Assembly (NCBI GenBank): GCA_046290225.1
Contig: JBKAGE010000007.1
Span: 1-64,000 of the forward strand
DNA from: Bradymonadia bacterium
GTDB lineage: Bacteria > Myxococcota_A > Bradymonadia > UBA7976 > UBA1532
Direction of reading: 5' to 3'
DNA: 64,000 nt
Part shown: piece by piece, positions 15,921 through 49,721 of the stretch
How positions within the stretch are numbered: position 1 is the stretch's first letter
How the letters are laid out: each line of letters begins with the position of its first letter
Program-made: the position numbers and the translations under genes
Notes under the pieces: model-generated
Told to the model about the DNA's origin: nothing
Databases searched by the model: none
The model's input: only the letters and a program-made list of their open reading frames with translations

Positions 15921-16305
15921 TGGAGCTGTGGGGTGGCGGCTGCTTCGCCGCATGTCGTGGCTACATCAGAGCGGCGATGGCACGCATCAGGCCGGCGCTT
16001 CCGTCCTCGACGTGGCCTCCGGCCACGCCTGCGGGTGAATCACCACCCTGCTACGCACCCTCCCCACTCTGACGTTGCGTACCAGCGATTCAGGCAGCAG
16101 CCCGAAAAACCAGCAACCCAGCTCCACAAACCTGGAACGAACGTATGCATCTGCCCGCGGAGGGGCGGAGGCCACGTGAGTGGCCGCCAGCGTCGTGAGG
16201 CGTGGTGGCTGGGTGGTGATTCACCCGCAGGCGATGCTGGAAGCATCGTCGAGGAGGGAAGCGCCGCCCAGGCGCCGCGGATCGCGACGCTGGCGGCCGC
16301 TCACG
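15921..16305. repeat. Two oppositely oriented structured repeat units, each with a TCCTCGACG-hairpin-CGCCTGCGGG core
   Basis: 56-bp inverted arms 15993-16048/16211-16266, differing mainly in the internal hairpin stems. Second inverted repeat 16175-16198/16282-16305 (22/24). Confidence 0.82.
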
Positions 16306-16329
16306 GGGCCGGAGCCCCGGAGCCACCCC

Positions 16330-18825
16330 TTACTGTGCGGTCACAGTCAGGGTGAAGGGCGCGGCGAAGCCAGCGGCGCCCTGGCCGACGAAGCCGTCGA
16401 CGAAGATGTAGGCGGCCTGATCAGCCTCCAGGGTCATCGTCATGGCGCTCAGGAAGTTGCCGCCCTGAGTGTCGATGTCGTCGTTGCAGGCCAGCTCGGC
16501 CACCTCGGCGCTGTAGCCGCAGAACTGACGGGCGAAGAGGAGGGTGTCACCCTCGCCGTCGATCTCCACCAGGTAGTCGCCAGCGGCGGGGGCCGTGAAG
16601 GCGTAGATGACCTGGGGGCCACCGCCACCGCAGGTGCCGGCGCCGCCGATGTTGGCGGCCTCGGTGCTGTCGCCCATCACCGACCAGACGCCCTCGCCGG
16701 TCATGGCAGCGTTGAGATCACCGATCTCACCGAAGGCCTCGGGGCACTCCACCACGGGCACGCCACAGGCGCCGAGGAGCTCGCCCTCGGCGGGCACGCC
16801 GCAGAGTTCACCCTCGGGGCAGATGCCCAGAGCGCCAGCCTCGTCACAGGCACCGCCGGACTCCACCTCGGGGGTGGCGATCACGGCGAGCTCGGTGGCC
16901 TCGGACTCAAGGCCGGCGATGTCGATGGCGGTCACCTCGATGGCGCCCACGTCAGCGAGGTTCACGGCGTCGCCGAGGAACACACCGAAGGCGGCCTGGT
17001 AGGCGCCCTCTTCACCAGCCACCACCTGCACACCGGTCTCGAACTCGGCGGGCACGGGGCCCTGCTGGCCGTCGATGAGGATGGGGGAGCCGTTGGCGTT
17101 GAGCAGCACCACGCGGGCGGCGACCACGTCGCCCTCGCCGTCGATGCCCTCGAAGGTGGCGCCGAAGGCACCGGTGGTGTCGTTGCCGTAGCCCTGACCC
17201 ATGGTGATGGTGGGGGCGGTGGCCACGGAGCAGACGAAGTTCTCCTCGCCGTCCTCGGTGCGATCGAGGCAGAAGTCACCCTCGCCACAGGCGGAGAAGC
17301 CGCCGGCGGAGTCACAGGGCTCGCCGTTGGCCACCACGGGGGTGGCACCGAGCTCGATGGTGAGGTCGTTGCTCTGCAGGCCAGCGACGTCGAAGATGAT
17401 CACGCGGATCGAAGCCACGACGGCGAAGTCCTCGGGGAGCTGGGCGGAGAAGGTGGCGATGAAGTCACCGTCAGCCTGCTCCACCTCGGCGAAGCCCACC
17501 TCGTCGAAGCCGGCGGAGAAGCTACCGTCCTCGCTGAGGCCGGGGATCACAGCGCCGTTCTCGTCGAGGAAGAACACCTGGAAGGCCGAGACGTCGTTCT
17601 CGGCGTCGGTGCCGAGGGCGGTCCAGGCCACGGCGGCGGCGCCGTTGGCGTTGGGGTTGTAGAAGCCCTCGAGCTCGCCGAGCACCGGCGCGGTGGCCGT
17701 GGTGCAGGCGGTGGGGCCGGCGGGATCCTCGCGGTTGATGCAGGCCTCGCCCTCGGGGCAGACGTTGAAGCCGCCCACAGGATCACAGTCGTCGCCGCTG
17801 CCGAGGACGGCAGGGGCCTGAGTCTGAGCTTCGGCGGGCTCGCTCTCGAGGCCGAGGCCGTCGATGAGCACCAGGCGCACGCCGCGGGTACCAGCGAGCT
17901 CTTCGGGCAGGCCCGCGGAGAACTCCATGGTGAAGCCGTCGGGGCTCTGATCGATGGTGGCGAAGCCCACCTCGTCGAAGCCAGCCTGGAAGGAGCCGGT
18001 GTCGCCGAAGGGCAAATCAGCACCGTTCTCGTCGAGGAAGGTCAGACGGAAGGCGCTGATGTCGGCCTCGGCGTCGGTGCCGGTGGCCCGGAAGGCCAGC
18101 ACGGTGTCGGCCTCGTTGTAGAAAGCCTCGATGGTGTCGATGCTCGGGGCCTCGGCGTTGCTCAGCTCCACCGTGAGGGTGAAGTCGGTGGGGCCGCCCT
18201 CGAAGCTGTCCACCACGATGAAGCCGGTCTGATCCGCCTCCATGTTCACGGCGACGCTGCTGGCCAGGTTCATCTGGCTGATGTCGTCGTTGCAGGCCAG
18301 CTCGGTGCCGGCGTCGGTGCAGTCGGTCCGCACGTAGAGTACGGTGTCGGCGCCGGCGGACTCACCGGTGCTGATGATGTAGAGGCCAGCCTCAGCGGCG
18401 GTGAACTGGAACACCGCGTCGGTGTGAGAGGCCTGGGGGTTGCTGCAGGAGCCGGAGAAGTCGTCGCCGCTGGTGGCGCCGCTGTAGCGCCACACGCCGC
18501 CGTTGGCGCCCTCAGCGTTGAGGTCGACCACGTCGACACCGGCACCACAGACGCCGGGCTCGCCGCCACCGGCACCACCCATCATGCCGGCCTCACCGCC
18601 GGCACCGCCGCCGCCCATGCCGGCCTCGCCGCCAGCACCAGCGACGCCGCCGCCCATGCCGGCCTCGCCACCGGCGCCGCCGCCAGCCACGCCGCCCATG
18701 CCGGCCTCGCCGCCAGCACCACCCGTGGCGTCACTGCCGGCATCTTCACTGTCACACCCGACAAGGCACATGGCCGCCAGGGCAGGAGCGGCGAGCAGGC
18801 GCCACATATCTACGGTCTTTTTCAT
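16330..18825 (-). CDS. Large acidic surface lipoprotein with PPC-like (ELACNDD) domains and three internal beta-sandwich-like repeats
   Basis: GGAGG then ATG 18825, lipobox LVGC, GGAGGEAGMGG linker, DTVLYVR..ELACNDD-type domains at both ends, three GTD.E.D....FLDENG...D..GL.S repeats separated by Cys knots. Confidence 0.82.
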   Translation of the reverse strand: MKKTVDMWRLLAAPALAAMCLVGCDSEDAGSDATGGAGGEAGMGGVAGGGAGGEAGMGGGVAGAGGEAGMGGGGAGGEAGMMGGAGGGEPGVCGAGVDVVDLNAEGANGGVWRYSGATSGDDFSGSCSNPQASHTDAVFQFTAAEAGLYIISTGESAGADTVLYVRTDCTDAGTELACNDDISQMNLASSVAVNMEADQTGFIVVDSFEGGPTDFTLTVELSNAEAPSIDTIEAFYNEADTVLAFRATGTDAEADISAFRLTFLDENGADLPFGDTGSFQAGFDEVGFATIDQSPDGFTMEFSAGLPEELAGTRGVRLVLIDGLGLESEPAEAQTQAPAVLGSGDDCDPVGGFNVCPEGEACINREDPAGPTACTTATAPVLGELEGFYNPNANGAAAVAWTALGTDAENDVSAFQVFFLDENGAVIPGLSEDGSFSAGFDEVGFAEVEQADGDFIATFSAQLPEDFAVVASIRVIIFDVAGLQSNDLTIELGATPVVANGEPCDSAGGFSACGEGDFCLDRTEDGEENFVCSVATAPTITMGQGYGNDTTGAFGATFEGIDGEGDVVAARVVLLNANGSPILIDGQQGPVPAEFETGVQVVAGEEGAYQAAFGVFLGDAVNLADVGAIEVTAIDIAGLESEATELAVIATPEVESGGACDEAGALGICPEGELCGVPAEGELLGACGVPVVECPEAFGEIGDLNAAMTGEGVWSVMGDSTEAANIGGAGTCGGGGPQVIYAFTAPAAGDYLVEIDGEGDTLLFARQFCGYSAEVAELACNDDIDTQGGNFLSAMTMTLEADQAAYIFVDGFVGQGAAGFAAPFTLTVTAQ

Positions 18826-19143
18826 ACCGTCCTCCACCTCACCGGGGGCCTTTCAGGGGCGCGCCGGCTCAGAAAAACTCACAGGCTCGAATCAAAGCCC
18901 AGTCAAAAGTCGGCGCAGACTACTCAAGTGGGGGGAGACGTCGCAAGTGCAGCTCATTGCCTTCTCGATCTTTCATACGCGAAGGCAGACATCTGTATAC
19001 GCGTGCACACGCTCGCGCGTTGCCGGAGCACGCTCATGGGTATGGTGTAATCTATGGCGAAGACATCAGGCCCCCGAGCATACGTTGAGGGGTTGATGAC
19101 CCGCAGGGGGCATGCGCGTATCCACGTGGAACTTCGCCGTCGG

Positions 19144-19296
19144 TCAAGATTTAAGCAGGGCCTCGAAGAAAGGCGGCGGGCTGCTCTCGCTCGAGGCGTG
19201 CTGAATGCACACCGAGGCGCTCTCCGCCCGAGCCTGACAGCCGTGCAGCCCCAAGGTGAAGGCGCAGAGAAGAAGAGAAACGATCTGTGTCTTCAC
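19144..19296 (-). CDS. Putative 50-aa small lipoprotein
   Basis: GTG start with GGAG upstream. MKTQIVSLLLCAFTLGLHGC is a signal peptide plus lipobox. Confidence 0.45.
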   Translation of the reverse strand: MKTQIVSLLLCAFTLGLHGCQARAESASVCIQHASSESSPPPFFEALLKS

Positions 19297-19398
19297 CGAA
19301 GCGCTCCGAGGTGTGGTCCACGTGGAGCCTTCTCCAGGTCTCTGGGGCAAGGCAGATCTATCGAGGCATCTGATACACTGCCCGCCATCTCGAAGACC

Positions 19399-21849
19399 AT
19401 GAGGCAGCTGATGATCTCCAAACATCTGTGGATCGCCCTGAGCGCAGTGACTGCGTTGTGGGCCTGCGACGACACCGAAGAGCCCGCCAACGATCGCGAT
19501 GTGGCGGTGGGGCCCTGTAATGCCCCAGCGTGCATCGGTGGCTCAGGGGGCGAAGCCGGCGCTGGCGGCGAAGCCGGTATGGGTGGCACCCCCACGGGTG
19601 GTATGGGCGGCACGCCCACGGGCGGCGCCGGTGGCGTCGGCGGTGTAGCAGGCGCAGGCGGTGAGCCAGGAGGCGCTGGTGGCGTCGTAGAGCCTGACGC
19701 CTTCGTGCTCCCTGATGCTGGTCTGCCCGATGCCGAGATCCCCGACGCGGGGCGCCCGGTGATGAACCCCCTCGTGCCCCGTGTGGAGAACCGCACCTGC
19801 GCGTTCCCCGAGATCCCGCCCGCTGGCGACATGGAGATCGAGCTGGCCTTCGGCAATCTGGATTTCGCCCGGCCGCTGTGGCTCGGCACCGCGCCAGGCG
19901 ACACAGATCACATCTATGTGATGGAGCAGGGCGGCCGGATTCTGGTCTTCGACGATGATCGAGAGGTCGATGAGACCGAAGTCTTCCTCGACTTGTCGGT
20001 CAGCCGTGCGGGCAACGAAGAGGGGCTGCTGGGGCTGGCATTTCACCCTGATTACGCCGAGAACGGCCGCCTGTTCTTGTACTACTCCGCGAGCAACCCA
20101 CGGCGATCAGTCATCAGCGAGTGGTCGCGAGACCGGAACAACCCGCTCCGAGTCGACCCGGCCTCCGAGCGGATCATCCTCGAGGTGGGGCAGCCCTTCA
20201 GCAATCACAACGGCGGGGACATGCACTTCGGCCCCGACGACTATCTCTACATCAGCCTCGGTGACGGCGGCTCGGGCGGTGATCCTGAGAACCATGGTCA
20301 GCGACCCACCACCCTGCTCGGCAGCGTGCTGCGCATCGACATCGACAACGTCTCTCCGGGCTGCAACTACGGCATCCCCCCGGACAACCCCTTTGCCGTA
20401 GGGAATGGCTGTGCAGGCGGTCAGGAAGGCCGGCCCGAGATCTGGGCATGGGGTCTGCGCAATGTCTGGCGCATGAGCTTCGACCGCAGCACCGGCGAGC
20501 TCTGGGCCGGTGATGTGGGTCAGGGCGCCTACGAAGAGATCGACATCCTCGAGGGCGGCCGCAACTACGGCTGGAACCAGGTGGAAGGCTTTGCCTGTTA
20601 CCGACGCGGGTGCGATCCGAGCGCATATGCGGATCCGGTGTTCGCCTATGGCCGCGGTGAGGGGCAGTCCATCACGGGCGGTTACGTCTACCGTGGCCCC
20701 GACTTCCCCGAGCTCTATGGTGCCTACATTTATGCGGATTATCGCAACGGTCGCATCTGGGCCCTGCGCCTGCGGCCCGGCGCCGAGCCTGTGAACACCC
20801 TGCTCGTGGACACCCCGGTCCGCATCGCCAGCTTTGGCGAAGACATCGATGGCCGCCTCTACTTCACCGCCTTCGACGGCCACATCTGGGGCCTTCGCCG
20901 ACGAGCTCAGGGCCCCGAGGTCCAGCCCCTGCCTCCGCGCCTGAGCGACACGGGCTGCTTCGACGATCTCACCGACATGGCACCTGCTGCAGGGGTGATC
21001 CCCTATCAGCTGAACGTGCCCTTCTGGAGCGACAACGCCCGGAAGTCCCGCTTCGTAGCGATGCCAGAGGGCGGCGCCGCCACATACACCGAGACCGGAG
21101 CCTTCGAGTTCCCCCTGGGCACAGTGGTCATCAAGCACTTCGAGATCGACGACGCCGCAGGCAACAGCCGCCGACTCGAGACCCGGTTCATGGTGCACCA
21201 GCCCACGGGCTGGCAGGGCTACACCTACCGCTGGAACGCCGAGCAGACCGACGCTGTGCTTCTCACTGGCGCCATGGACGAGGTGGTGAGCGGTCCTGAG
21301 GGTGAGCAGACCTGGCACTACCCTGCCCGCTCGGACTGCGACGGCTGTCACACAGAAGCTGCGGGGCACGTGCTGGGGTTCCGAGGTCAACAGCTCGACC
21401 GCACCATGGTGTACGGCGATGTGCAGTACCCCCAGCTCGAGGCCCTCTCCGAGGCTGGCCTGCTCTCCGGCGATCTGCCCGCTGAGCGTCAGGCGTTCCC
21501 CCGCCTCAACGACAACGCGGTGCCCCTCGCCGAGCGGGCGCGGGTGATGCTCGACGTGAACTGCGCCATGTGTCACCAGCCTGATGGGCCAGGGAACGCC
21601 ACCATCGATCTACGGGTGGAGACGCCCTTTGCCGAGCAGCGCCTGTGCAACGCCGAGCCCGGTCAGGGCGATCTGGGCCTCGCCGGCGCCCGCATCGTGG
21701 CCCCCGGCGAGCCAGCACGCTCAGTGCTGCTGCAACGTATGTCGGTGCTCGGTGAAGATCGCATGCCCCCAGTGGGCAGCAACGTGGTCGATGCCGAAGG
21801 TGTGCGCTTGATCCAGAGTTGGATCGAGTCGATGAACGGCTGCGAGTAA
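19399..21849 (+). CDS. Lipoprotein: PQQ-dependent sugar dehydrogenase (GSDH-type beta-propeller) fused to a diheme c-type cytochrome module
   Basis: Lipobox LWAC; EEGLLGLAFHPDY, NHNGG, YISLGDGG, IPPDNPF, WGLRNVWRMSFD, DVGQ..YEEI, SFGED; then LSDTGCF, FWSDNA.K.R, CDGCH and CAMCH. Confidence 0.88.
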   Translation: MRQLMISKHLWIALSAVTALWACDDTEEPANDRDVAVGPCNAPACIGGSGGEAGAGGEAGMGGTPTGGMGGTPTGGAGGVGGVAGAGGEPGGAGGVVEPDAFVLPDAGLPDAEIPDAGRPVMNPLVPRVENRTCAFPEIPPAGDMEIELAFGNLDFARPLWLGTAPGDTDHIYVMEQGGRILVFDDDREVDETEVFLDLSVSRAGNEEGLLGLAFHPDYAENGRLFLYYSASNPRRSVISEWSRDRNNPLRVDPASERIILEVGQPFSNHNGGDMHFGPDDYLYISLGDGGSGGDPENHGQRPTTLLGSVLRIDIDNVSPGCNYGIPPDNPFAVGNGCAGGQEGRPEIWAWGLRNVWRMSFDRSTGELWAGDVGQGAYEEIDILEGGRNYGWNQVEGFACYRRGCDPSAYADPVFAYGRGEGQSITGGYVYRGPDFPELYGAYIYADYRNGRIWALRLRPGAEPVNTLLVDTPVRIASFGEDIDGRLYFTAFDGHIWGLRRRAQGPEVQPLPPRLSDTGCFDDLTDMAPAAGVIPYQLNVPFWSDNARKSRFVAMPEGGAATYTETGAFEFPLGTVVIKHFEIDDAAGNSRRLETRFMVHQPTGWQGYTYRWNAEQTDAVLLTGAMDEVVSGPEGEQTWHYPARSDCDGCHTEAAGHVLGFRGQQLDRTMVYGDVQYPQLEALSEAGLLSGDLPAERQAFPRLNDNAVPLAERARVMLDVNCAMCHQPDGPGNATIDLRVETPFAEQRLCNAEPGQGDLGLAGARIVAPGEPARSVLLQRMSVLGEDRMPPVGSNVVDAEGVRLIQSWIESMNGCE

Positions 21850-21872
21850 CCCGGTATCAGATCAGGCTGAGT

Positions 21873-24344
21873 CTATAGGTCCGCGCACCACCCGAACTCG
21901 GCCCGCTGTCCGGGACCGATCACCGCGTTCCACTCCACCCCGGTGAACCGCACCCGCCCACTGTCGGCCGTGCGGTTGGCGTTCCACAGGTTGATGATCG
22001 TGCCTTCGACGTCGGCCTCGACCGCCCACTCCAGATCATCCTCCGTCACGTTGACGACCACCGCGTTCATGCACACGCCCGTGGGCCAGCGGGAAGCCTC
22101 GCGCAGATCGAGCTCTGCCCCCTCGGCGGTGGGACCAGGCTCTGGCTCGGGCTCCGGATCCACCATCACGGGGGGCGGCTCGACCACCTCACCGGGCTCG
22201 GTGGGCACCAGATCTGCTCCAGGCACGTCTTCTTCGGTGTCTCCGCCAACGCGCAGACGGAAATGGCTCGTGGCGGTCAGTGCTGGCAGCACGTCCGACA
22301 GCTGTGCGAGGCCGTCGCCTGCGATGTGGTTGATGTAACACGCCATCGGCAGCGCATCGTCGATGCCGAAGCCATAGCGGATCCATTGCCGCACATAGCA
22401 ATCGCGCACGGCTGGCGCCTCACCCAACGCAGCGCCGAGCTCGGGCAGACCGTCGATGAGGATGTCGTCCCCCTCGGTCTGCACGATACGCCCGCTGGCG
22501 TCGATGGGGTGAACACCGTCCAGATCGCGGTAGCGGCCGATGCCATCGAAGTGCTCGAAGGCGAAGCCGATGGGATCAATGAGGCGGTGACAGCCCGAGC
22601 ACGCCGCGTCGCTGGAGTGCTGGCTGTAGCGCTCCCGCGTACTGCGGGTCGGATCTACAGGTGGTGGCGCGGTGTCGAGGTTCGCCGGCGGATCAGGCAG
22701 CTTCTGACACAGCATGCGCTCCCGCACCATCAAGCCACGGTGGATCGGCGAGCTGTTGGCTGGCAGCGCGTGGGTCGTCAGCACGCTGCCATGGCTCAAG
22801 ATGCCGCCATAAGGGCTCGCGCTGAGATCGACCTCTCCCCAATCCCCCATCGCCTGCAGGCCATAGTGATCGGCGAGACGCGGCGACATCGCCCGCTGCT
22901 GCGCCGTGAACAGCTCTCGCAGCCCACCGCCCTCGGTCCAGAGGGTGGCGACGAAACGTCGGGTCTCTTCGGCCATATCGGCCCGCAGCTCGGCGGTCAG
23001 CTCAGGATAGACCTCGGGATCCCGAGGCACGACCGACAGGTTCTCGAGTTCTAACCAGCGATCCGCGAACCGGATCATGACCCCGGCGCTCCGCGGATCA
23101 GCGAGCAATCGATCTGCCTGGGTGGCGATCTCGGCGGGGTCGAGCAGGCGGCCATCTACGGCGCGATCCCACAACTCGTCGTCGGGGGTGGTTTGCCAGA
23201 ACAGGTAGCTCAGCTCCGCGGCGATCTCGAAGGAGGTGAGTGCGAAGCCCCCGTCGACCCGCCGGCCCAGCTCGCTGCGATACAGGAAGTGAGGTGACTG
23301 CAAAAGCGCGGCGATCATCCACCGCGCACCGACCTCGCGGCTCTCCTCTGCGCCGATGGCGTAGATGTCGAGGTAGCGAATCTGCTCTTCGGGAGTGAGC
23401 GGTCGCCGCAGCAGCCTCGCACCGAGACCCGCGAGTGTGGTCTGCATGCACGCCTGGCTGGGCGCACAGTCGAGCAGACGCCCGAGGTCGACCTGCTCGG
23501 CGATCTGCTCGGCGGCGAGTCGGTACTGATCCGCGAGCAGGCTGGTCACCGTCAGCGCGTCGGCGTTGTTGTCGAAACCGTGCACCACCCGATCGGCGGC
23601 GAAGGCCTCTTCGGCCTCGTAATCCACCCCCAGCAGATCGTGCACCGTGTGGGTGTACTCGGCGTGGCTGAGGCGGCGCAGCGCGCGGTGACCAGGAGGC
23701 GGCTCGGAGCAGTCTGCAGGGGCTTCGGGGGGCTCACGATCAGGATCAGTGGGCTCGCCACAGGCGTCGCGGGCGCCCGTCAATCGATCGGCGAGGTGGA
23801 CCAGATCACGGTACCCCTGGCTGCCCACCGAGAGCACCATGCCACCCCCGTGGCCGTCCGGGTGTGTCGCCGTGGGCTTGAGGAGCAGGATCGGCGTGTC
23901 GCGTACACGCTCGTCGGCGAGCACGGCGAGGGCGTCGAGATCAGCTTGCACATCTACGGGGCCCTGCAAGAGCAGGCGGGTGCCACCGGCGACCCCCTCG
24001 GCGACGTGACAGGTGACGCAGGTGGTGCTGAACGTCGGCTGCCACACCTGCTCGAGGTAGAAGTCTTCGGTGGAGACACAGTCAGCGGGCCCTGCATCTG
24101 CGCCGGGCACCCCTGGACCGGCGTCCGACCCCGGCTCTCCAGACCCGGCATCTACGTTGGGATCATCACGCCCGGCGTCTGGACTCGGCGCCTCTGGCCC
24201 CGCATCAGCACCGGGCATTTCCCCCTCAGGTCCGGGGCTCGAAGCGTCAGCACCGGGTACGGGCTGCGTGTCTGCCTGCTCAGCATCTTCAGAGCAGCCG
24301 ATCAGTGCGAAGAGCATCAGGCCAATCGACAAACGATGCATCAC
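21873..24344 (-). CDS. DUF1592/DUF1588/DUF1587/DUF1595-type cytochrome c lipoprotein with C-terminal CBM2-like domain
   Basis: Lipobox LIGC; CVTCH; LRRLSHAEY..TV.DLLG, LQSPHFLYR, SSPIHRG, CSGCH..IDPIGFAFEHFD; C-terminal W..G..WNA..WNA.I.PG....FG CBM2 pattern. Confidence 0.87.
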   Translation of the reverse strand: MMHRLSIGLMLFALIGCSEDAEQADTQPVPGADASSPGPEGEMPGADAGPEAPSPDAGRDDPNVDAGSGEPGSDAGPGVPGADAGPADCVSTEDFYLEQVWQPTFSTTCVTCHVAEGVAGGTRLLLQGPVDVQADLDALAVLADERVRDTPILLLKPTATHPDGHGGGMVLSVGSQGYRDLVHLADRLTGARDACGEPTDPDREPPEAPADCSEPPPGHRALRRLSHAEYTHTVHDLLGVDYEAEEAFAADRVVHGFDNNADALTVTSLLADQYRLAAEQIAEQVDLGRLLDCAPSQACMQTTLAGLGARLLRRPLTPEEQIRYLDIYAIGAEESREVGARWMIAALLQSPHFLYRSELGRRVDGGFALTSFEIAAELSYLFWQTTPDDELWDRAVDGRLLDPAEIATQADRLLADPRSAGVMIRFADRWLELENLSVVPRDPEVYPELTAELRADMAEETRRFVATLWTEGGGLRELFTAQQRAMSPRLADHYGLQAMGDWGEVDLSASPYGGILSHGSVLTTHALPANSSPIHRGLMVRERMLCQKLPDPPANLDTAPPPVDPTRSTRERYSQHSSDAACSGCHRLIDPIGFAFEHFDGIGRYRDLDGVHPIDASGRIVQTEGDDILIDGLPELGAALGEAPAVRDCYVRQWIRYGFGIDDALPMACYINHIAGDGLAQLSDVLPALTATSHFRLRVGGDTEEDVPGADLVPTEPGEVVEPPPVMVDPEPEPEPGPTAEGAELDLREASRWPTGVCMNAVVVNVTEDDLEWAVEADVEGTIINLWNANRTADSGRVRFTGVEWNAVIGPGQRAEFGWCADL

Positions 24345-25615
24345 ATCACCCCCGCCAGACCACCACTCGCCGTACTCGGATCACCAAAGGTGTCGAGGGC
24401 CATGCCGAACATCCGGGTCAGGCTGACCAGCAGCTTGCTGTGAGAGTCGCCGTTGAAGTGCAGGTAACGCCCGCCGTTCACGGCGCCCGCCAGCACGAAG
24501 GGCACATCCTCCGTCACGTGCAACCGCGGATCACCCATCTCCTTGCACCACATCACCACCGTCGAATCGAGCAGCGTGCCCCCCGTCTCGGGATCATCCG
24601 TGGCCGCGAGTCGGTCGAGCAAGTGGGCAAAGCGACCTGCCACCCATCGCTCGGCGGTGACGAAGTCCTGCACCTTCTCGATGTGATTGTCATTGGCGTG
24701 GGACAACGAGTGATGCCCGTCGACGTTGCCGGCCCAGGTGAAAACCACCGGGCTGATGGAGTGACTGAACTGAACCGTCGCCACATGGGTGAGCCCACAG
24801 GCGAGGGCGGTGACGGCGAGATCGATCTGGGCCTCGAGGAGGGCCGGGCCGTTGTCGTTGATGTTCGGCTGGAGCGCATCTGGCGCTTCGGGGGCGGCGC
24901 AGTCGCCGACCTCGCTGAACAGGCTCTGCTCGACGCTGCGAATGGAGGCGAGGTGGGCCTGGAGCTTGATCTGCTCCGCCCGGCCGACGCGGCGGTGCAG
25001 ATCAGTCAGCTCTGCCCGCTGGGTGTCGAGGATGCTCTGGCGCAAACGGCGCAATCGCGCCTGGGCATCGGCGTCGCCTGCCAGATCGCCGAACATGCGC
25101 CCGAAGGCCCGTCGTGGATCCCAGTCGGGGTGCACGAGCTCACCGGGGCCGCGGTAGCAGATCCGCGTCTGCGCCTGGGCGCCCCAGAGATCGGTGAGCA
25201 CCCCGAACTCCAACGAGGGGAACCGATCACCACGGCCGATGTGTTCGGCGATGACTTGATCGACAGACATGCCCCGGGTCGGCGTGTCGGCGCCGCCGTG
25301 GTTCGTCAGCATCGCCGACTGCCCACCTTCGTGGTTCGTGCCGGTGAAGAAGTTGACCCCATCGACGATGAGCAGGCGCTCACGCCATCGCTGGAGCGGC
25401 TCGAGCACCGAGCCTTCGCGCAACACGAAATCGCGCTCTCCGCCACCTGGCCGCCAATGCTGGTGGATGCATCCATTGGGTGAGGAGAAGATCAGCAGCC
25501 GCCGCGGGCCTTCGGGCACCTGCGCCCGTGCGTCGCGTGTCAGCAACTGGCAAAAGGGCGCGGCGAGCAGTGATGCCCCCAGGCTCTGAACAAACCCCCG
25601 TCGGGTCGTTGACAC
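24341..25615 (-). CDS. DUF1552 (HXXSHH-type) Tat-exported protein
   Basis: Tat motif TRRGF, PNG, SVDQVIA, P..AF.R.FG, SILD, ALACGLTHV, HHSLSH, LLDST. GGAGG RBS. Overlaps the next gene by 4 bp. Confidence 0.88.
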   Translation of the reverse strand: MSTTRRGFVQSLGASLLAAPFCQLLTRDARAQVPEGPRRLLIFSSPNGCIHQHWRPGGGERDFVLREGSVLEPLQRWRERLLIVDGVNFFTGTNHEGGQSAMLTNHGGADTPTRGMSVDQVIAEHIGRGDRFPSLEFGVLTDLWGAQAQTRICYRGPGELVHPDWDPRRAFGRMFGDLAGDADAQARLRRLRQSILDTQRAELTDLHRRVGRAEQIKLQAHLASIRSVEQSLFSEVGDCAAPEAPDALQPNINDNGPALLEAQIDLAVTALACGLTHVATVQFSHSISPVVFTWAGNVDGHHSLSHANDNHIEKVQDFVTAERWVAGRFAHLLDRLAATDDPETGGTLLDSTVVMWCKEMGDPRLHVTEDVPFVLAGAVNGGRYLHFNGDSHSKLLVSLTRMFGMALDTFGDPSTASGGLAGVM

Positions 25616-25667
25616 AGTGCCTCCTCTGTCACATGTAGCGATTTTGATGCGTTTGGAGTCTACCAGA

Positions 25668-25825
25668 TCGTGCTCTGCATTCGTATTGAGTCGGGAGGAC
25701 GCAGGATTGAGGTCAGAGTTCGGGGGCGAAGAGCGCAGGCGATGCCAAAGTATCGTCGAGCATCTTCAACCTCGAAATCTGACCTCAAGACAAGTACTCA
25801 CACTCAATCCGAATGCAGAGCACGA
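25668..25825. repeat. 158-bp long-hairpin inverted-repeat element with GCAGGCG-hairpin-CGTCGAG at the apex
   Basis: Terminal inverted repeat 25668-25691/25802-25825 (23/24), inner imperfect arm 25707-25732/25763-25788, AGA on both flanks. Confidence 0.82.
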
Positions 25826-25871
25826 AGAGGCAGGAAACCGGGGTCTACAGGGTGAGCCTGGCAGTCAGTGC

Positions 25872-26969: not shown

Positions 26970-27164
26970 GTACTCGCTCCTTCACGGGTCATGGGCCAGG
27001 GATGACCTCGGGACCCTCGGGTTGCAGAGGAGGGAGCATAAAGCGTGGAGATGAGAGGCAGATGAAAGCCCCGTGAAGTGTTGATGAGGTGGGGATTTAC
27101 GTCGCTGACTCAGCGCATATTTCATCGCACGGGCGGCGAGCGCAGGGATGTCAGGCCCTCTATG

Positions 27165-30945: not shown

Positions 30946-30955
30946 ACCCTGCAGC

Positions 30956-36341: not shown

Positions 36342-36489
36342 GGGATCCGTCGAAGGGTAATCGTCGGTGCAGTGTATGGATCTGTGGGGTTTGATGCCAA
36401 TGGTCGTACAACACGTTTGCATCGCCCCTGCCCTCCGGGCCACCCTCGGTCCGCCGACCCCCTCCGACGCCCCAGAGGAGTAGCCCAAT

Positions 36490-38261: not shown

Positions 38262-38413
38262 GCTGGTGATCCCACCTCACCTCCGAGACCCCACGCGCGA
38301 ATTCTGGCAGGGCCACGAGCCAAAGCCCGAGCCGGCACGTGCCGAAACTCTCTCCAATGGGTCGACAGGCCACCCTCTGGTTAGGTAAACCCGTCCAGTC
38401 AACGAGCTGCGAG

Positions 38414-40818: not shown

Positions 40819-40819
<1 letters not shown>
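38414..40819 (+). CDS. Ser/Thr kinase-like domain + FGE-sulfatase (SUMF1-like) domain protein
   Basis: VAVK, HPNIVP, HRDIKPAH, DWGLAK, GTPAYMAPEQ; C-terminal RLPTEAEWEYAA, FPWG, SPFG..GM.GGVREW, RGGSW, GIRLV. Confidence 0.9.
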
Positions 40820-43932
<3,113 letters not shown>

Positions 43933-43945
43933 AGCCGTCAGCGCT

Positions 43946-44530
43946 TCAGCGCATCCACGAGGGCTTGGGTGCCCCCTCAGGCAGCTCCGGGTCACGGAGC
44001 GGCGGGCGCCCCATGAGCCCACGCACATAGAACACCACCACAGCGATGGCCCCCCAGGCGAGGCCCACCACCACACCACCATCGATGATGGCCCGCCAGG
44101 GCTGGTCGAGCTGACGCACGGCGGCGATGACGCCCACGATGACGGTGATCAACACCCAGCCCACGATCATGCGCTTCTTCGTGGCGTAGAACAGGCCCAT
44201 GCAAAAGGCCGGCGCCAACAACACGTGCAGCGGCTTGGGGTGCTCGGCGAGGTACAGGCTGCGGGCCACCACTCGGGGAGAGTAGCCTTTCTGGAACCCG
44301 CGATAGCCCTCGGCGTGAGCGTTGAAGACAATGAAGCCCACATAGAGCACCCACTGGAAACCGGTGAGGGCGGGGCCCACGGTGAAGGGCTCGAGGGCGA
44401 TGGGGGTGAGGCGCCAGATGGCGCTGCCCAACAGAGACAGCGCTCCGAGCACACCCCAGAGCGAGGCGAAGCGGCCCAGCAGGCTCACCTGCGTGGTGCG
44501 ATCTTCAGGTGCCTCGGTGCCAGCGCTCAT
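43946..44530 (-). CDS. Hypothetical membrane protein
   Basis: 194 aa, about 4-5 TM helices, conserved-looking EGYRGFQK.YSPRVVAR and QPWRAIIDGGVV motifs. Confidence 0.75.
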   Translation of the reverse strand: MSAGTEAPEDRTTQVSLLGRFASLWGVLGALSLLGSAIWRLTPIALEPFTVGPALTGFQWVLYVGFIVFNAHAEGYRGFQKGYSPRVVARSLYLAEHPKPLHVLLAPAFCMGLFYATKKRMIVGWVLITVIVGVIAAVRQLDQPWRAIIDGGVVVGLAWGAIAVVVFYVRGLMGRPPLRDPELPEGAPKPSWMR

Positions 44531-44603
44531 GCAGATCTCGTCCTCAACTCTTCAGCGATTTGGGCAGTGGTAGCACAACGCCTGCGGCGAAGCACTCAAC
44601 CTC

Positions 44604-45977
44604 TCAGATGTGGGCGACCGAGCCGTCGCTCATCATCAGGCACTCCGCCGTCTTCAGGCCCTGGCCCCGATCGAGGACCTTGCGCTGCTTTGCGTTCAGC
44701 ATCTTGGCCTTCAGGCCATCATTGGCGCGCCATCGAACCACCGTGAGCGGGCTGAGCCGCAGTGTCTCTGGTGCTTGAGCCAATGCCGTGGCCCATTCAT
44801 CACCGTGGGCAGGCAGATCGGTGCTCCACACCTGCAGCGCGTTCAGCTGCGGCAACGCACCGACGAGGGCGTCGATCTGCTCGAACTCTTCGAGGTGCAG
44901 GGGCCAGTCCAGGGCCATCAGCGCACTTCGCAAAGTCTCGGGCATGGCCTCGATGAGCGGAGCCATACGATCGAGGGGCACCTTGTGGCCGGGCAGCTTT
45001 GCGAAACGGGAGACCCGAATGTCGCACTGTCGCAGCAACTCGATGAGAGTGGCCCATGGGGTCTCGGCGTCGATGTCCAGACGGCTGCCGAAGGCGCGCT
45101 GATAGACCCCCGCTCGCAGCAAACTCTCGGTGAGCTGCATGTCGCACGATTCGACCACCACCGGCCGGGCGTTCTGCAACCAGACCCCCAGCGGCTCGGC
45201 GAGGGTGTCGAGCGAGGACCCCATGAAATGAGTCCGCACCGAAAGATGCCGTAGGCTGGCCCACTTGGGGGCGTTGGCCTTGATGGGCCGATGCGCCAAG
45301 GCGGAATCTTCGAGGATCAGCTGCAGAGAGACCACGTGATCGAGATCGGTGCGGGCCAGCATCGCGTCGACTTGCAACGGGTCAGCGAGCTTGAGGATGA
45401 CCTCACGGTCATCGAGGCCGCTGGCCTGATCAGACGCCTGCCGTGCTCTCCGCGCGATGTTGTTCGACCAGCTAGAAGGCAACACCCCCTCTGCACTCAG
45501 GTGCGCTCTGATTTTTTCGTGATCGCCCCTCTTTTGAGATCCGATCGAGGCCTTCTCTGGCTGGGCCGCACCAAACAACTTTGTCAGCCCGTCGAGCACT
45601 GAGGCCTGGCTGCCGAACTCCCTGAGTCTGATGAGGTTGATCGAACCCAGGTGCGGAGACTCGGAGAGCGCGCTCATCCACACCGCTGCCTGCTTGGCCA
45701 TGTGCCCGAAGAAGAACATCTCCAGCGAGAGCGTACGCACCAGCTCGAAGCGCAGATCGAGCTCTGGGCGGTGATAGAGGGCATACCAGTGGCGCGGACA
45801 CACCCTGATCTCGTCAGGCCACTCTTCAATGGCTGCGCGCAGCGCCTGGAGGCCCTCCACGTCACTGGCGAGGGCCAGGGCGTCAGCGACACCGACCAGC
45901 ACCGCCCACGCGTCACTGTCGGGCCTCTCGAACTGCACAGCATCAGACCATGTGAGGCCAAAGGCGAGATCAGACAT
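44604..45977 (-). CDS. Hypothetical protein (possible degenerate Leu-rich repeats)
   Basis: 457 aa ORF filling the gap, with LxxLxL-like segments; no firm family. Confidence 0.62.
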   Translation of the reverse strand: MSDLAFGLTWSDAVQFERPDSDAWAVLVGVADALALASDVEGLQALRAAIEEWPDEIRVCPRHWYALYHRPELDLRFELVRTLSLEMFFFGHMAKQAAVWMSALSESPHLGSINLIRLREFGSQASVLDGLTKLFGAAQPEKASIGSQKRGDHEKIRAHLSAEGVLPSSWSNNIARRARQASDQASGLDDREVILKLADPLQVDAMLARTDLDHVVSLQLILEDSALAHRPIKANAPKWASLRHLSVRTHFMGSSLDTLAEPLGVWLQNARPVVVESCDMQLTESLLRAGVYQRAFGSRLDIDAETPWATLIELLRQCDIRVSRFAKLPGHKVPLDRMAPLIEAMPETLRSALMALDWPLHLEEFEQIDALVGALPQLNALQVWSTDLPAHGDEWATALAQAPETLRLSPLTVVRWRANDGLKAKMLNAKQRKVLDRGQGLKTAECLMMSDGSVAHI

Positions 45978-46047
45978 GGCGGGTACCCTCGTAGGTAGAG
46001 TTGAGTGTGCTGATTACGCGAGGGCAGGGCTCGACGCAAACAGCCCC

Positions 46048-47097
46048 TCACATCCAGGGCGTGGTCACCGCCACCCCGAAGGAGAACGACTGAATCTTCG
46101 ATGTGTTTCGCCCCCAGACCACCGGGGTGTAGCCCAGGTTCAGCTCGGTGCCTTCGACGACGCGGAAGATCACCCCCACGGGGGTCACCACCCGGTCGCG
46201 CTCGAGGCGCAGCTCTCTGAGGAACAGGTTGTCGAGGCCGCCGTACTCCTCAGCAGGCAGAGTGGGATCTTCCGCCGCTACGCTCACCCCGATGATCTTG
46301 CCGTCGGTGACCGCAAACTCACCGTCTACGCCGGCGTAGACCAGCACCCGCTCTCCGATGCGCTGGCCAGCCTTCACGCTGCCCACCACCTGGTCACCGG
46401 CGCCGCCGAACCGCAGCGCATAGCCGATGTCGGCCCGGGCGAAGAAGCCCACCGAGGTGGCCCAGCCCAACAAGAGCCGTGGCACCAGATCGAGCTGTCC
46501 GTCACCGAGGGTGACATCGTCCGAGACATTGTCGGGGTTCGTGAAGCCCGCGATGTCGGAGAGGAACGCCTCCCGAGTGGCCGGCCGATCACCGAAGGTG
46601 CCTTCAGGGCGATCGTAGCCCGTGGGGGTCTTGAGGGTCAGCTCCAGCGCCGAGGCCCACTGACCACCAGTGAGCTGATAACGGGCGGTCATACGCAGGT
46701 CGCCGATGCCCGTCTGCCCCCGGTTCAGGTTGATGATGTTCTCCTGATAGAAGTCGAAGTCGCTCTGGACCTGATCACCAGGAGATGGCAACAAGATCAC
46801 CGGATCTGCGGTGTAGTTGACCTGCTTGATGGGCATCTCGAACTGCAGCTCCACCTTGGAGGTCAGGCCCAGTCGTACGCCGAAGGTGTAGGTGCTCGCC
46901 GAGTACCGCCCATCGAGAGAGAACGGCACCGCCTCCCGATCGCCGAGGAACTCTTCTGTGGCCACCTCGTAGTCGTACCGCCCGAGCACCACCAGCTTGC
47001 CCGGAGGCAGCACCCACGGTGAGGCGGTGGCGACGAGCGGAGATAGAGCTGCGCCGATGAAGCTCAGCGCCGTGACGAGCCATGGGGTGCGTTGCAT
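46048..47097 (-). CDS. Outer-membrane beta-barrel protein (MetA-pathway/transporter-like)
   Basis: Signal peptide, GIGDLRMTARYQL, LKTPTGY, LGDGQLD, alternating beta-strands. Confidence 0.72.
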   Translation of the reverse strand: MQRTPWLVTALSFIGAALSPLVATASPWVLPPGKLVVLGRYDYEVATEEFLGDREAVPFSLDGRYSASTYTFGVRLGLTSKVELQFEMPIKQVNYTADPVILLPSPGDQVQSDFDFYQENIINLNRGQTGIGDLRMTARYQLTGGQWASALELTLKTPTGYDRPEGTFGDRPATREAFLSDIAGFTNPDNVSDDVTLGDGQLDLVPRLLLGWATSVGFFARADIGYALRFGGAGDQVVGSVKAGQRIGERVLVYAGVDGEFAVTDGKIIGVSVAAEDPTLPAEEYGGLDNLFLRELRLERDRVVTPVGVIFRVVEGTELNLGYTPVVWGRNTSKIQSFSFGVAVTTPWM

Positions 47098-47108
47098 CGA
47101 TTCTTCCG

Positions 47109-48902
47109 TCAAAAGGTCACGAAGGGTTGAGGCTGCTCTTTTTTCTCTTCCTTCACCGGCGGAGGTGCAGGGGGCGCCTCTGGGGCAGGCGGAACATCTG
47201 AGGCGGCGGGCTGCTCAGGGGCCGCGGGTGCAGTCTCTGGAGTGGGTGCTTTCACTTCGACAACAGGGGGCACCGCAGCATCAGGCGCAGCGGGGATCTC
47301 CGGGGCAATGTCTGACTCCGGCTGCTCTGGCGCCTGCAACTGCGGCACCACAGGGGCGACCTCAGTGAGCGGATCTTTCTCAACCTCGACGGCTGCAGGC
47401 ATCGCTGGCTGCGCAGGCACTTCGCCCTTGACCGCGGGCTCGACCCGCGTGCGCTTGGCGCCACGGCGGGTGACACCACGACGGGCGCGGCGACGCAGCG
47501 GCTTGGGCTTCGGCTGCTCAGCGACCTGAGTGGCTGCATCGGGCATCACTGCATCGGGCATCACAGCGTCGGGCACTGCGGCATCAGAAACATGCACGTC
47601 CGGCATCTCCGCGGCGGCTTTGATTGCACCATCGGGCTGCACCTCGGTGACCGCCACCATCGCCCGTGAGGGATCTGTGTCACCGCCTGGTCCCTCATCA
47701 TCCTCATGGGCGAGCACGGCCCAGCCCACACCGCCGAGCATCAAGAGCAGCACCGCGATGCCACCCCATCTGACAAACCGGTGGGGGAACCCGTCGATCT
47801 CTTCGTCGATGGACTCGTCGAGCACCCCGTCCGCGTCGAGTGTGGGCGCCTGCGCCAGGGTGTCGGAGTCAGGCGGCAGCACCAGCGCTGCGCCACGGCC
47901 ATCTCCAGAGCCCGTCGAGATGGGCTCGATCTCACTGAGAGAGATGGGCCCTTCTCCAGACTCGTCGGCGCCAAAGACCGGGTTCAGACTGATGCCGGAG
48001 ATCGATGCCATTCCAGCATCGGAGACGCCCTCCAGCGCGCTCAGCACCGCCCCTGCGTGGGGGAAGCGATGCGCAGGTTTCTTCTCCAGACAGCGATCCA
48101 CCACAGCAGCCAGCGCCGGATCGACTTCTGGAGCGTGGGTGGTCACGGGTACGTGAGGGGTCTGATACGCAGCCATACACACTGCAGGCAACGTCTCGCC
48201 CTCGAAGGGCAGCTTGCCCGTGAGGATCTCGTAGAGCATCACCCCCACCGACCAGACATCGGAGGCCGGCGTGCACTTGCGGGGATCCATGGCCTGCTCG
48301 GGGCTCATGTAGTGGGGCGTGCCCATGGTGAGGCCGGTCTTGGTGGCGGGGCCGCTCAAGTCGTCTCGGGCGATGCCGAAGTCGATCAGCTTGATCTCCG
48401 GCGGCTCAGGCAGCGGCTCTGCGCCGCCTCGACTGGCGCCGATCACGAAGACATTGTCGGGCTTGATGTCCCGGTGGATCACCCCTGCGGTGTGGGCGGC
48501 GGCGAGGGGGGCCAGCATCCCCTTGAGGGCTGCGACGGCCTCGGGCAGCACCTTCTGGTCTTGCCGATCCGCGAGCCAGTTCCTGAGGCTGGTGCCTCGG
48601 AGCAGCTCCATGACGAGATAGAAGCCGCCGTCGTCAGTGCGGCCTTCGTCGAAGCACGCCACCACACCCGGGTGACCAATGGTGGAGGCTGCCCGGGCTT
48701 CACGCATCAGTCGCTCAGCGGTGGAGTCGCGATCGGTCAGGTGCGGATGCAACACCTTGAGAGCCACACTGAGCTCTGTGGAGAGATCGACGGCCTGATA
48801 CACATTGCCCATGCTGCCGCGGGCAAGCAGACGGATGGGCTGATAGCGCCCGCCATACACCGGCCCCTCAGGGGGTGTCGTTTTCGGATTGTCCTCGGCC
48901 AT
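47109..48902 (-). CDS. Membrane-anchored Ser/Thr protein kinase
   Basis: ARGSMG.VY, VALK, HRDIKPDN, DFGIA, GTPHYMSPEQ, one TM segment, Pro/Ala-rich C-terminus. Confidence 0.92.
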   Translation of the reverse strand: MAEDNPKTTPPEGPVYGGRYQPIRLLARGSMGNVYQAVDLSTELSVALKVLHPHLTDRDSTAERLMREARAASTIGHPGVVACFDEGRTDDGGFYLVMELLRGTSLRNWLADRQDQKVLPEAVAALKGMLAPLAAAHTAGVIHRDIKPDNVFVIGASRGGAEPLPEPPEIKLIDFGIARDDLSGPATKTGLTMGTPHYMSPEQAMDPRKCTPASDVWSVGVMLYEILTGKLPFEGETLPAVCMAAYQTPHVPVTTHAPEVDPALAAVVDRCLEKKPAHRFPHAGAVLSALEGVSDAGMASISGISLNPVFGADESGEGPISLSEIEPISTGSGDGRGAALVLPPDSDTLAQAPTLDADGVLDESIDEEIDGFPHRFVRWGGIAVLLLMLGGVGWAVLAHEDDEGPGGDTDPSRAMVAVTEVQPDGAIKAAAEMPDVHVSDAAVPDAVMPDAVMPDAATQVAEQPKPKPLRRRARRGVTRRGAKRTRVEPAVKGEVPAQPAMPAAVEVEKDPLTEVAPVVPQLQAPEQPESDIAPEIPAAPDAAVPPVVEVKAPTPETAPAAPEQPAASDVPPAPEAPPAPPPVKEEKKEQPQPFVTF

Positions 48903-49042
48903 CACTACCCGGTCTCGCACGTTCGGGGGTGAAGTAGAGAGTGCTCGCTCGCCGCGAGGTCGCGTCTCTCCTGACTACGTCTGCTTAAACTGAAATGTTG
49001 CGCCTTGCTGCGCTTTGGCCTGCTCGGATGGCGGCCTTCGCC

Positions 49043-49429
49043 TCAGAGGATCGCGTGGGCCTCGATCTCCAAGAGGGCCTGACGCTCGACGAGGGCCGAA
49101 ACAGCCACCAGAGCCATGGCAGGAAAATGACGCCCCATGCGAGCACGCCAGATGGGCCCCAGGGCCCGCTCATTTCGACGATAGTCCTCGATGTCGGTGA
49201 CATAGATCACCATGCGAGCAAGATCAGTCGCAGCGCCGCCAGCGGCCTCTACGACAGCGACGACATTGGCCAGCGCCTGGTCGAATTGCTCGAGGAACCC
49301 GCCCTCTACAAAGACCTGATCAGGACCCCAGCCAATCTGCCCGGCGATGAAGAGCACTTTGCCCTCACCGAGCATACCGTTGGCATACCCCTTCGCCGGG
49401 GCCCAGCCCTCTGGGTGGATGATCTTCAT
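49043..49429 (-). CDS. Rid (YjgF/YER057c/UK114) family protein, non-Arg subfamily
   Basis: P.GW...KGY.NG, IAGQIG, FPAMALV.V..L, LEIEA. The catalytic Arg position of RidA is Met. Confidence 0.88.
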   Translation of the reverse strand: MKIIHPEGWAPAKGYANGMLGEGKVLFIAGQIGWGPDQVFVEGGFLEQFDQALANVVAVVEAAGGAATDLARMVIYVTDIEDYRRNERALGPIWRARMGRHFPAMALVAVSALVERQALLEIEAHAIL

Positions 49430-49445
49430 CGTGCTTCTCCCTTAA

Positions 49446-49721
49446 GAGGCCCTAACATAACTGCTCCCATCGCCAGAAAGGCAGTGTTGTCTAGCCCAGC
49501 CAGACGAAGGCATCCGATGGGCAACTCTTCGCTCCGTCGGCTTCGCCTCTGTCGACTACGAGTTGTCTGGCAAAGCCAGATACCTTCGCCTGTCTGGCCT
49601 CAGCACTTCGCGATGCAGCCGAAAGCATCCTCGACGATACATCGGTATCGCCTGCGGGTCTTTCAACTGCCTCACTCGCGCCTCACCTCCCTGGCTCGGT
49701 CCGCCGTTGTGTTAGGACCTC
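49446..49721. mobile_element. 276-bp MITE with GAG-starting terminal inverted repeats and TAA target-site duplication (IS5-family-like ends)
   Basis: Left end GAGGCCCTAACATAAC, right end reverse complement GAGGTCCTAACACAAC (14/16). TAA at 49443-49445 and 49722-49724. No credible transposase ORF. Confidence 0.72.

Follow-up and report, generated by a model that had tools for sequence, protein, structure and literature searches.

A conserved hairpin module forms the tip of rod-shaped inverted-repeat elements in a Bradymonadia genome and in other bacterial phyla

In the first 64,000 nt of contig JBKAGE010000007.1 of a Bradymonadia bacterium (GenBank assembly GCA_046290225.1), the whole stretch that was analysed and that we call the window, a short motif occurs four times in which CTCGACG and CGCCTGCG enclose a small stem-loop of variable sequence. 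We found that this motif is the tip of imperfect hairpins of 160–180 nt, of which the genome contains about 77 and which belong to at least four families with different arms. [quoted passage not shown] The term gene-less refers to an open reading frame (ORF) check confined to the ATG of the stem: a small peptide read through the module was rejected, since this ATG sits in the stem, whose sequence varies, and is not conserved from copy to copy. A preliminary description of the window had regarded the motif as a shared recognition module of several miniature element families, and this interpretation is largely supported, with recognition as a putative role.

Searching the window for CTCGACG-N(8–20)-CGCCTGCG gave four exact matches where 0.02 were expected, a number reached in none of 100 shuffled sequences. 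The four-fold recurrence of the preliminary description was thus found again, with its coordinates a few bases off the pattern matches (Table 1), and so were all four stems (TGGCC/GGCCA, ATGCT/AGCAT, ATGC/GTAT and ATAC/GTAT); the ATGC/GTAT stem includes one G.U pair if the plus strand is read. The genome-wide pattern search that had been suggested there was carried out on the whole assembly (8.58 Mb, 64.4% G+C, 83 contigs, 99.4% complete) and returned 75 matches, 40 forward and 35 reverse, versus 1 for the reversed-pattern control. About 60 of these are true family members with a stem of 4–5 bp and at least six different stem sequences (ATGC/GCAT, GGCC/GGCC, CAGC/GCTG, TGGCC/GGCCA, TAGCC/GGCTA, ATAC/GTAT). 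The other 15 or so match by chance within coding sequence, and several lie in thrombospondin-type repeats. Coding sequence of thrombospondin type-3-like repeats (CTCGACGGCGACGGCATCGGCGACGCCTGCG) matches the bare pattern at C47:71249-71279, at C62:9225-9255 and in many relatives, and is a source of false matches in G+C-rich genomes. When up to one mismatch per flank was allowed and a stem was required, 102 matches were retrieved, and in 77 of them one strand folds more than 10 kcal/mol better than the other. Compensatory variants of the flanks were also seen (CTCGATG..CACCTGCG, CTCGAAG..CTCCTGCG and CTCGGCG..CGCCTGCG). With about 77–80 copies of 159–180 bp the elements have the size and the copy number of MITEs, and the high genomic copy number anticipated from the window is borne out.

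In an all-against-all blastn comparison 72 of the 77 copies fell into family A (24 copies), family B (46) and family C (2). Family D (4 copies, including the site at 25.7 kb of the window) and family C (5 copies) were aligned separately. The module is carried in this genome by four inverted-repeat families with different ends, and the arms differ among the window sites as described before: the 16-kb sites belong to family B, the 25.7-kb site to family D and the 49.5-kb site to family A. Families A and B nevertheless have conserved islands in common over the central ~110 nt. Family A elements are exactly 159 bp long and have the terminal inverted repeats GAGGTCCTAACA.../...TGTTAGGACCTC. An exact 3-bp direct repeat flanks 22 of the 32 elements with A-type ends (TTA in 9, TAA in 7, TGA in 3, TCA in 2 and AAA in 1 case; T-N-A in 21 of 22), while nine have a flanking repeat with one mismatch and one has a repeat with two. 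Since these repeats are direct and a palindromic reading fits only 1 of 32 elements, we regard them as T-N-A target-site duplications. Family D has the ends TCGTGCTCTGCATTCG... and 3-bp direct repeats in all four copies (TGA, TCA, TGA, AGA). In family C the ends are GAGCGTTATGCGG..., starting with GAG, and the target repeat is probably TA. Family B consists of a rod of ~170–178 nt with repeated CGGAG loops at its base and a non-palindromic extension of ~30–45 nt located 5’ on the well-folding strand. Apart from this extension its termini are merely imperfect CTCCG-rich ends, and no target-site duplication was identified in alignments and flanks. Of the features by which MITEs are recognized, terminal inverted repeats are thus present in families A, D and C and target-site duplications in families A and D. 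Several rod copies sit at contig ends.

Family A also includes shorter and longer forms (Table 1). Mini elements of 46–63 bp are deletion forms that have A-type ends and exact T-N-A duplications, have lost the interior including the module, and show no strand asymmetry of folding. In composites of 276–289 bp with A-type ends, another small hairpin repeat is nested within one of the arms. This nested repeat, ~117–130 bp long, has the same location in several A-type elements, and the composites have been copied as a unit, with T-N-A duplications of their own.

The module itself has the layout N-CGCA-GGCG-(free 4–5 bp stem)-CGUC-GAG-N’. Pairing was assessed in 39 diverged representatives, of which this genome contributed 17 and other genomes 22, for a structure made up of a closing pair, unpaired CGCA, the GGCG/CGUC helix, a free stem of 4 bp and unpaired GAG: 99.7% of the cells were paired, compared to 88.4% in shuffled alignments (none of 500 as high) and to at most 58.5% when the partners were slid. 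The closing pair of the module is C-G in 36 rows and G-C in 2, and the second pair of the GGCG/CGUC helix is G.U in 38 of 38 rows. The covariation of the stem comes from the copies of this genome, because the foreign loci were fetched with ATGC/GCAT fixed. For 16 diverged A and B copies RNAalifold predicted 47 pairs, 36 of them with double changes, as well as conserved islands GUGAGG...AUCGC common to both families. The stems change in a correlated manner, and the loops remain constant. The covariation claimed in the preliminary description was therefore recovered by both approaches. It had also read the motif as GCAGGCG...CGUCGAG with a symmetric internal loop: the strand it chose is indeed the well-folding one, but an asymmetric loop (GCA/GA, as drawn by RNAalifold, or CGCA/GAG) fits better.

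In every one of the 66 A and B copies the strand containing CGCAGGCG...CGUCGAG is the better-folding one, with −101 versus −74 kcal/mol in family A and −120 versus −85 kcal/mol in family B when RNA parameters are used. In an arm-against-arm alignment of 19 family representatives the well-folding strand has 82 G.U as opposed to 33 A.C combinations, and 157 purine-purine as opposed to 24 pyrimidine-pyrimidine mismatches. The copies are old; median pairwise identity is 80% in family A and 65% in family B. We further analyzed rare changes, i.e. those present in at most two copies, at positions with a Watson-Crick consensus pair in the family. On the well-folding strand 37 single changes give G.U and 15 give A.C (binomial p 0.003), and 98 double changes keep the pair, although relatedness among the copies of a family makes these counts overstate independence. 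For family A the average is 0.36 rare changes per unpaired column, compared to 0.77 per paired column.

To assess the spread of the module we searched a species-representative genome collection for the exact module of 29–30 nt, CCGCAGGCG-ATGC-N(3–5)-GCAT-CGTCGAGGA, and found 63 loci. Carriers include several Myxococcales/Myxococcota genomes, Planctomycetota and Pirellulales, unclassified proteobacteria, Bradymonadales (Persicimonas and the isolate Lujinxingia vulgaris TMQ2) and Rhodothermales (Salinibacter, Salinivenus and ‘Bacteroidetes QS_3_64_15’). At the foreign loci the module again forms the tip of hairpins, here of ~160–200 nt and with inverted ends of their own. Around many of these elements lie 4-bp repeats (TTAG, TTAA or CTAG type), and one family has TG...CA ends and variable 4-bp repeats. 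The same strand is better folded in 53 of 54 foreign loci, with a mean gap of 16.8 kcal/mol. A covariance model of the module matched in at least 19 of 151 genomes sampled across the phylum, with at most 39 candidates scored per genome. Its distribution is patchy even in the window’s own family, where at least 3 of 11 other genomes have matches, and further matches show new compensatory variants, e.g. GGCA/UGUC and GUAC/GUAC stems. The module pattern had no match in 2.9 million viral contigs, and blastn of one B and one A copy gave no match in a plasmid collection. Because the module is constant across ends, families and phyla, its stems covary and rare changes favour pairing, the purine-rich strand likely has a function.

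Some foreign loci show additional features. Locus L119 (G085:C45:36500-40000, ~1470-2010), from another genome of the same class, has four modules head to tail at 124–155-nt spacing, made up of repeated half-elements (arm and tip) followed by one complete element; part of it is masked with N. In seven loci from Planctomycetota, Myxococcota and Lujinxingia (L033, L034, L043, L044, L052, L060, L080) a second conserved feature flanks the module ~10–25 nt away on each side, CAAGGCG 5’ and CAACGCC 3’, which is predicted to form GGCG/CGCC helices around an A-A/A-A loop and which this genome’s families lack. A further island recurs in several families that otherwise differ (family A and loci L034, L046 and L119) and consists of GCGGACCGAG close to the 5’ end and CGACGGGAGC close to the 3’ end, with two predicted purine-rich 3x3 loops in which GGA lies opposite GGA.

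In our favoured interpretation of the rods as MITEs with a functional tip, insertion would occur by cut and paste into T-N-A, or into YTAR in other genomes. In a genome of 64% G+C T-N-A is often a stop codon and its duplication restores the stop, so that insertions would cause little damage; in 7 of 34 A and D insertions the triplet that was duplicated is the neighboring gene’s stop codon, and several more lie at most 11 nt away from one. The transposase would be supplied from elsewhere or may have been lost. IS5-type DDE transposases are proposed because of the T-N-A/YTAR duplications together with the GAG ends, which we take to be IS5-type features. The module, with its asymmetric purine loop, invariant G.U and free hairpin, is predicted to be a target that a conserved host factor binds or cleaves once the purine-rich strand is transcribed. 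RNA appears more likely than single-stranded DNA as the folded form, since the duplications are true ones, no HUH enzyme was found here and purine-loaded loops are typical of structured RNAs.

Several observations speak against this interpretation. No parent insertion sequence with A-type ends and a transposase, as would be expected for a MITE, was found in this assembly, and a profile search of the assembly gave no match to PF13586, PF13359 or PF13340. Likewise the complete 7.5-Mb chromosome of another lineage, which has 11 copies of related elements, has no long partner with the same ends. The strand asymmetry persists in the same 66 copies with DNA energy parameters, with gaps of 12 (A) and 18 (B) kcal/mol, which leaves room for single-stranded DNA. 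For B1 and B3 the opposite of family A holds, the conservation of unpaired columns not exceeding that of paired ones, and the relatedness of copies mentioned above applies to all counts of rare changes. Family B fits least well: it has no clear duplication, an asymmetric 5’ extension and a strong orientation bias, its well-folding strand is antisense to the adjacent gene, and its fixed orientation behind stop codons is not accounted for by the DDE model. A scan of the 16-kb site for promoter and terminator consensus sequences gave no sigma-70-like promoter and no U-tract terminator, and the RNA evidence consists of two strandless 151-nt metatranscriptome contigs at depth 2 that lead from the gene end into copy 2 and neither indicate nor exclude expression. 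As to the missing parent element, multi-copy insertion sequences may be absent from the assembly because it consists of 83 contigs. Two long A-type end pairs (1051 and 1553 bp) were considered as parent elements and rejected, as they contain ordinary host ORFs. The sole DDE_Tnp_1 (PF01609) gene was rejected as the mover since it is bordered by (GGGCAC)n arms and has no module. It is an ORF of 392 amino acids located between 64-nt inverted arms that are 98% complementary (C50:54446-57895). A weak model match inside a transposase ORF of another genome (G174) was attributed to chance, as it has no hairpin.

It is also possible, though we put it at less than an even chance, that the module represents a new kind of structured nucleic-acid motif, widespread and with its own function, which travels as a passenger in MITEs of different transposase families across at least five phyla and is kept by selection copy by copy, e.g. 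as a docking or cleavage site of a host protein on RNA. Should the purine-rich strand be an RNA that has a partner, the module would represent a widespread class of structured RNA, a functional passenger spread by MITEs.

A less probable alternative, which we regard as unlikely, is that the rods both act and transpose in the form of folded single-stranded DNA, much like repetitive extragenic palindromic sequences (REPs) and REPINs, with an HUH-type or other enzyme recognizing the hairpin on one strand and the tip as recognition site. The asymmetry obtained with DNA parameters is compatible with this, purine-purine mismatches and GGA-type loops are stable in DNA too, and family B resembles REPs in lying just past genes in one orientation and having no clear duplication. 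There is also a weak excess of copies with the well-folding strand on the G-rich strand (38 versus 23), but this GC-skew bias is not significant. Y1 transposase genes are present in all five other module-bearing genomes tested. However, the present genome has the most copies and yet a profile search of its assembly gave no Y1 match (PF01797, Y1_Tnp), and none of six Y1 loci from those other genomes has a module within ~1.5 kb. Families A and D moreover have true 3-bp direct duplications, and HUH single-strand transposition (IS200/IS605) is not known to make such target duplications. In the passages that define them, REPs are described as sequences of 20–40 nt with an unpaired GTAG or CGTC tag, stems of 8–9 bp beginning with AT and a CCA tail (PMC3733652), and REPs with a CGTC tag occur without a dedicated transposase (Di Nocera et al. 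2013, PMC3733652). The elements described here have neither this tag nor this size. Measured against that description we rejected an identity with CGTC-tagged REPs: here CGUC is paired with GGCG, the stem has 4–5 bp, and the units are 160–180 nt long and have duplications. A general likeness to REPs, bacterial interspersed mosaic elements and REPINs, elements associated with RAYT transposases, as portrayed in the same passages, remains in that all are extragenic palindromes, often located just past genes, sometimes nested and thought to act single-stranded.

The position of the repeats relative to genes was analyzed with gene calls based on codon usage (5795 genes, 90% coverage). Nearly all copies are intergenic. 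Family A shows no orientation preference. Family B does: among the 46 intergenic non-A copies, 38 have a gene 3’ of the well-folding strand that is encoded on the other strand. In 28 of 42 B copies a convergent gene end is located at most 110 nt from the core, and in 20 of these the distance is 70–79 nt, which places the rod end CCGGAGC 0–8 nt behind the stop codon. The neighboring genes of family B are mixed and include NuoN (last gene of the nuo operon), EttA, PurH, ribosomal protein L3, a SUF protein and large surface proteins; 11 of 21 have no NCBIfam match, and Glt gliding proteins and MYXO-CTERM are among the annotations, which assign the organism to Myxococcota. An early idea that family B lies beside busy genes was dropped on account of this mixture.

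This arrangement, and neighbors such as NuoN, EttA, PurH and L3, would suit a role of the rods as host-serving elements in cis on the mRNA, i.e. hairpins located where genes end that would terminate transcription or shield 3’ ends, with the module conserved for the sake of this role and mobility being secondary. The hairpins are very stable when formed from either strand, and the RNA-library contigs do run from the gene end into the rod. We nevertheless consider this quite improbable. The messenger next to family B would contain the weaker, pyrimidine-looped strand and selection is seen on the opposite strand, family A lacks an orientation preference, no U-tract terminators were detected at the 16-kb site, and the patchy spread would be unexpected for a core host function. 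That the rods are plain selfish MITEs of common descent, the tip being a relic of recent copying and the asymmetry arising from a few master copies or mutation bias and neither having a function of its own, appears very unlikely: copies within a family do descend from masters, so that the shared G.U is not independent, the mini elements keep ends and duplications without a module, and neither a binding partner nor a transcript is known, but the module stays exactly the same where arms and ends have been exchanged, in four families here and in other phyla, copies of 65–80% identity keep their pairing, and the same strand is favoured at nearly all foreign loci.

The coordinates of the four copies in the window are given in Table 1 together with those of the other features. 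The arms of copy 1 are unlike those of full B copies in the family alignment, and its minus strand folds with −78.4 kcal/mol (z −6.5) versus −50.6 kcal/mol (z −1.8) for the plus strand. Copy 2 has its inverted arms at 16162–16238 and 16242–16318 and reaches −138 kcal/mol (z −10.9) on the plus strand versus −107.9 kcal/mol on the minus strand. A distance of 6 nt separates the end of copy 2 from the stop codon (16330–16332) of the gene that follows, which converges on the well-folding strand. In copy 3 the terminal inverted repeats TCGTGCTCTGCATTCG.../...CGAATGCAGAGCACGA are flanked by the direct repeat AGA at 25665–25667 and 25826–25828; its inverted repeats pair 25668–25691 with 25802–25825 (96%) and 25707–25732 with 25763–25788. 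Copy 4 has the ends GAGGCCCTAACA.../...TGTTAGGACCTC and the flanking direct repeat TAA/TAA, and its strands fold with −144.8 versus −115.0 kcal/mol, the minus strand being better. Related forms of this composite of 278–289 bp are present at three or four other places in the genome.

Three public sequencing runs cover small shares of the 16-kb stretch (5–10% of words). Contigs of two marine DNA metagenome runs match the unique flank on the left and join position 15974 to 16076 via TGAGGG, which indicates a related population without the central 101 nt of copy 1 (15975–16075), motif included. In related populations the rod core is thus polymorphic for presence or absence. Contigs of other family B copies in the metagenomes stop matching at 16324, the end of the B element.

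Table 1. Positions of the module copies in the window and of related or neighboring features (positions without a prefix refer to the window).
Feature	Position	Strand	Description
Motif match, copy 1	16006–16033	+	pattern search
Motif match, copy 2	16226–16253	−	pattern search
Motif match, copy 3	25734–25760	−	pattern search
Motif match, copy 4	49630–49656	+	pattern search
Copy 1	15960–16078	− (well-folding)	truncated B-type rod, central part only
5’ extension of copy 2	16110–16153	+	non-palindromic leader, moderately conserved in family B (consensus near CAAAGCC..GCACGTG)
Copy 2	16154–16323	+	full B-type rod; 3’ end CCGGAGC
Gene adjoining copy 2	16330–18837	−	835 amino acids, no NCBIfam match; ORF list and codon-usage gene calls
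Copy 3	25668–25825 (25665–25828 with repeats)	+ (well-folding)	D-type MITE-like element
Copy 4	49446–49721 (49443–49724 with repeats)	− (well-folding)	A-type composite, 276 bp
Nested insert in one arm of copy 4	49482–49607 (approximate)		~125 bp; comparison with 159-bp A copies
Mini A-type element	C1:15921-15983		end scan
Mini A-type element	C42:37883-37945		end scan
Mini A-type element	C34:156991-157047		end scan
Mini A-type element	C11:11338-11390		end scan
Mini A-type element	C48:80445-80490		end scan
Mini A-type element	C81:1653-1698		end scan
Composite A element	C2:8827-9102		same composite as copy 4
Composite A element	C35:240484-240772		
Composite A element	C42:101878-102166		
Composite A element	C9:30934-31222		
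Composite A element	C35:343660-343937		
(GGGCAC)n arms of the DDE_Tnp_1 locus	1114-1177 and 2619-2682 within C50:54446-57895		

Comparison with Rfam gave no match in the window at gathering score, and for two element regions only plant microRNA precursors of a generic long-hairpin kind were returned at E-values up to 10, far below threshold (30 bits versus a cut-off of 168). A full-text literature search with the module letters and for MITE/IS5/Myxococc and Salinibacter MITEs had a single match, the report on Geobacter metallireducens by Aklujkar et al. 2009 (PMC2700814), in which 24 ‘predicted short RNA elements’ are listed (Gmet_R1001–R1024; Fig. S1/Additional file 4). Five of them (Gmet_R1003, R1010, R1013, R1015, R1021) carry CCTCGACG-TAGC-GCT-GCTA-CGCCTGCGG, while the other 19 have the variant loop GTGCGRCG...CGCCTCCGC (PMC2700814, Fig. 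S1). The suggestion that the motif is undescribed therefore holds with respect to Rfam families but not entirely, since these five elements contain the module. Like the rods described here, the Geobacter elements are multi-copy intergenic hairpins, with the central palindrome GRCGTAGCGCTGCTACGCC. Copies of the present genome such as those at C36:124795, C46:55046 and C46:55560 carry GGCGTAGCGCTGCTACGCC as in the Geobacter palindrome, the centre being the part compared. They differ in that the Geobacter elements are listed as 111–116 nt long, compared to rods of 159–180 nt with defined ends and, in some families, duplications; the parts of the report that present the elements give no ends, duplications, strand asymmetry or function for them (PMC2700814). 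So far the only published trace of the module is thus a supplementary alignment from Geobacter, left without explanation. The present analysis contributes the element ends together with their target duplications, the connection with stop codons, the exact match across phyla in elements with different ends and the strand-specific tests for selection. Cultured carriers exist (G. metallireducens, Lujinxingia vulgaris), which makes the question of function testable.

Integron attC sites are imperfect hairpins located right after stop codons and functional on one strand only. The rods share the imperfect hairpin behind stop codons and the one-strand asymmetry; attC sites, however, are conserved at the ends and not at the tip, occur in one-directional cassette arrays beside an integrase and are not known to make 3-bp duplications, whereas the rods are scattered over the genome. 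Within the IS5 family the IS1031 group has a 3-bp T-N-A duplication and GAG ends, and the IS5 group has a 4-bp YTAR duplication. Family A resembles the former in its ends, which begin with GAG, and in its T-N-A duplications, and the ends of family C start with GAG as well; the related elements of other genomes with TTAG, TTAA and CTAG repeats resemble the latter. Unlike members of the IS5 family, the rods are accompanied in this assembly neither by an IS5-type transposase domain nor by a long element with the same ends. T-N-A targeting with a duplication that restores the stop codon offers a simple explanation for ‘repeats behind stop codons’.

Among MITEs, the Tourist-type elements of plants have TWA duplications. 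As far as they are described in PMC10969869 and PMC3184786, bacterial MITEs (Correia, ERIC, Nezha, Chunjie) are similar to the rods in being small, gene-less and multi-copy, in their inverted ends and short duplications, and also in their predicted long-hairpin transcripts and intergenic location. Chunjie, a MITE from Geobacter uraniireducens, is not the same element: going by its description in reviews it is set apart by 9-bp repeats and A+T-richness. In contrast to the MITEs compared, the elements described here are G+C-rich and have a strand-specific fold under continuing selection. MITE families are usually defined by shared ends and have free interiors, whereas here a module of 29 nt and the rod are shared and it is the ends and duplications that vary with family and phylum, contrary to what is usual. 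Together with a fold of one strand that is kept in copies merely 65–80% identical, this points to a selected function of a common, as yet unnamed bacterial repeat.

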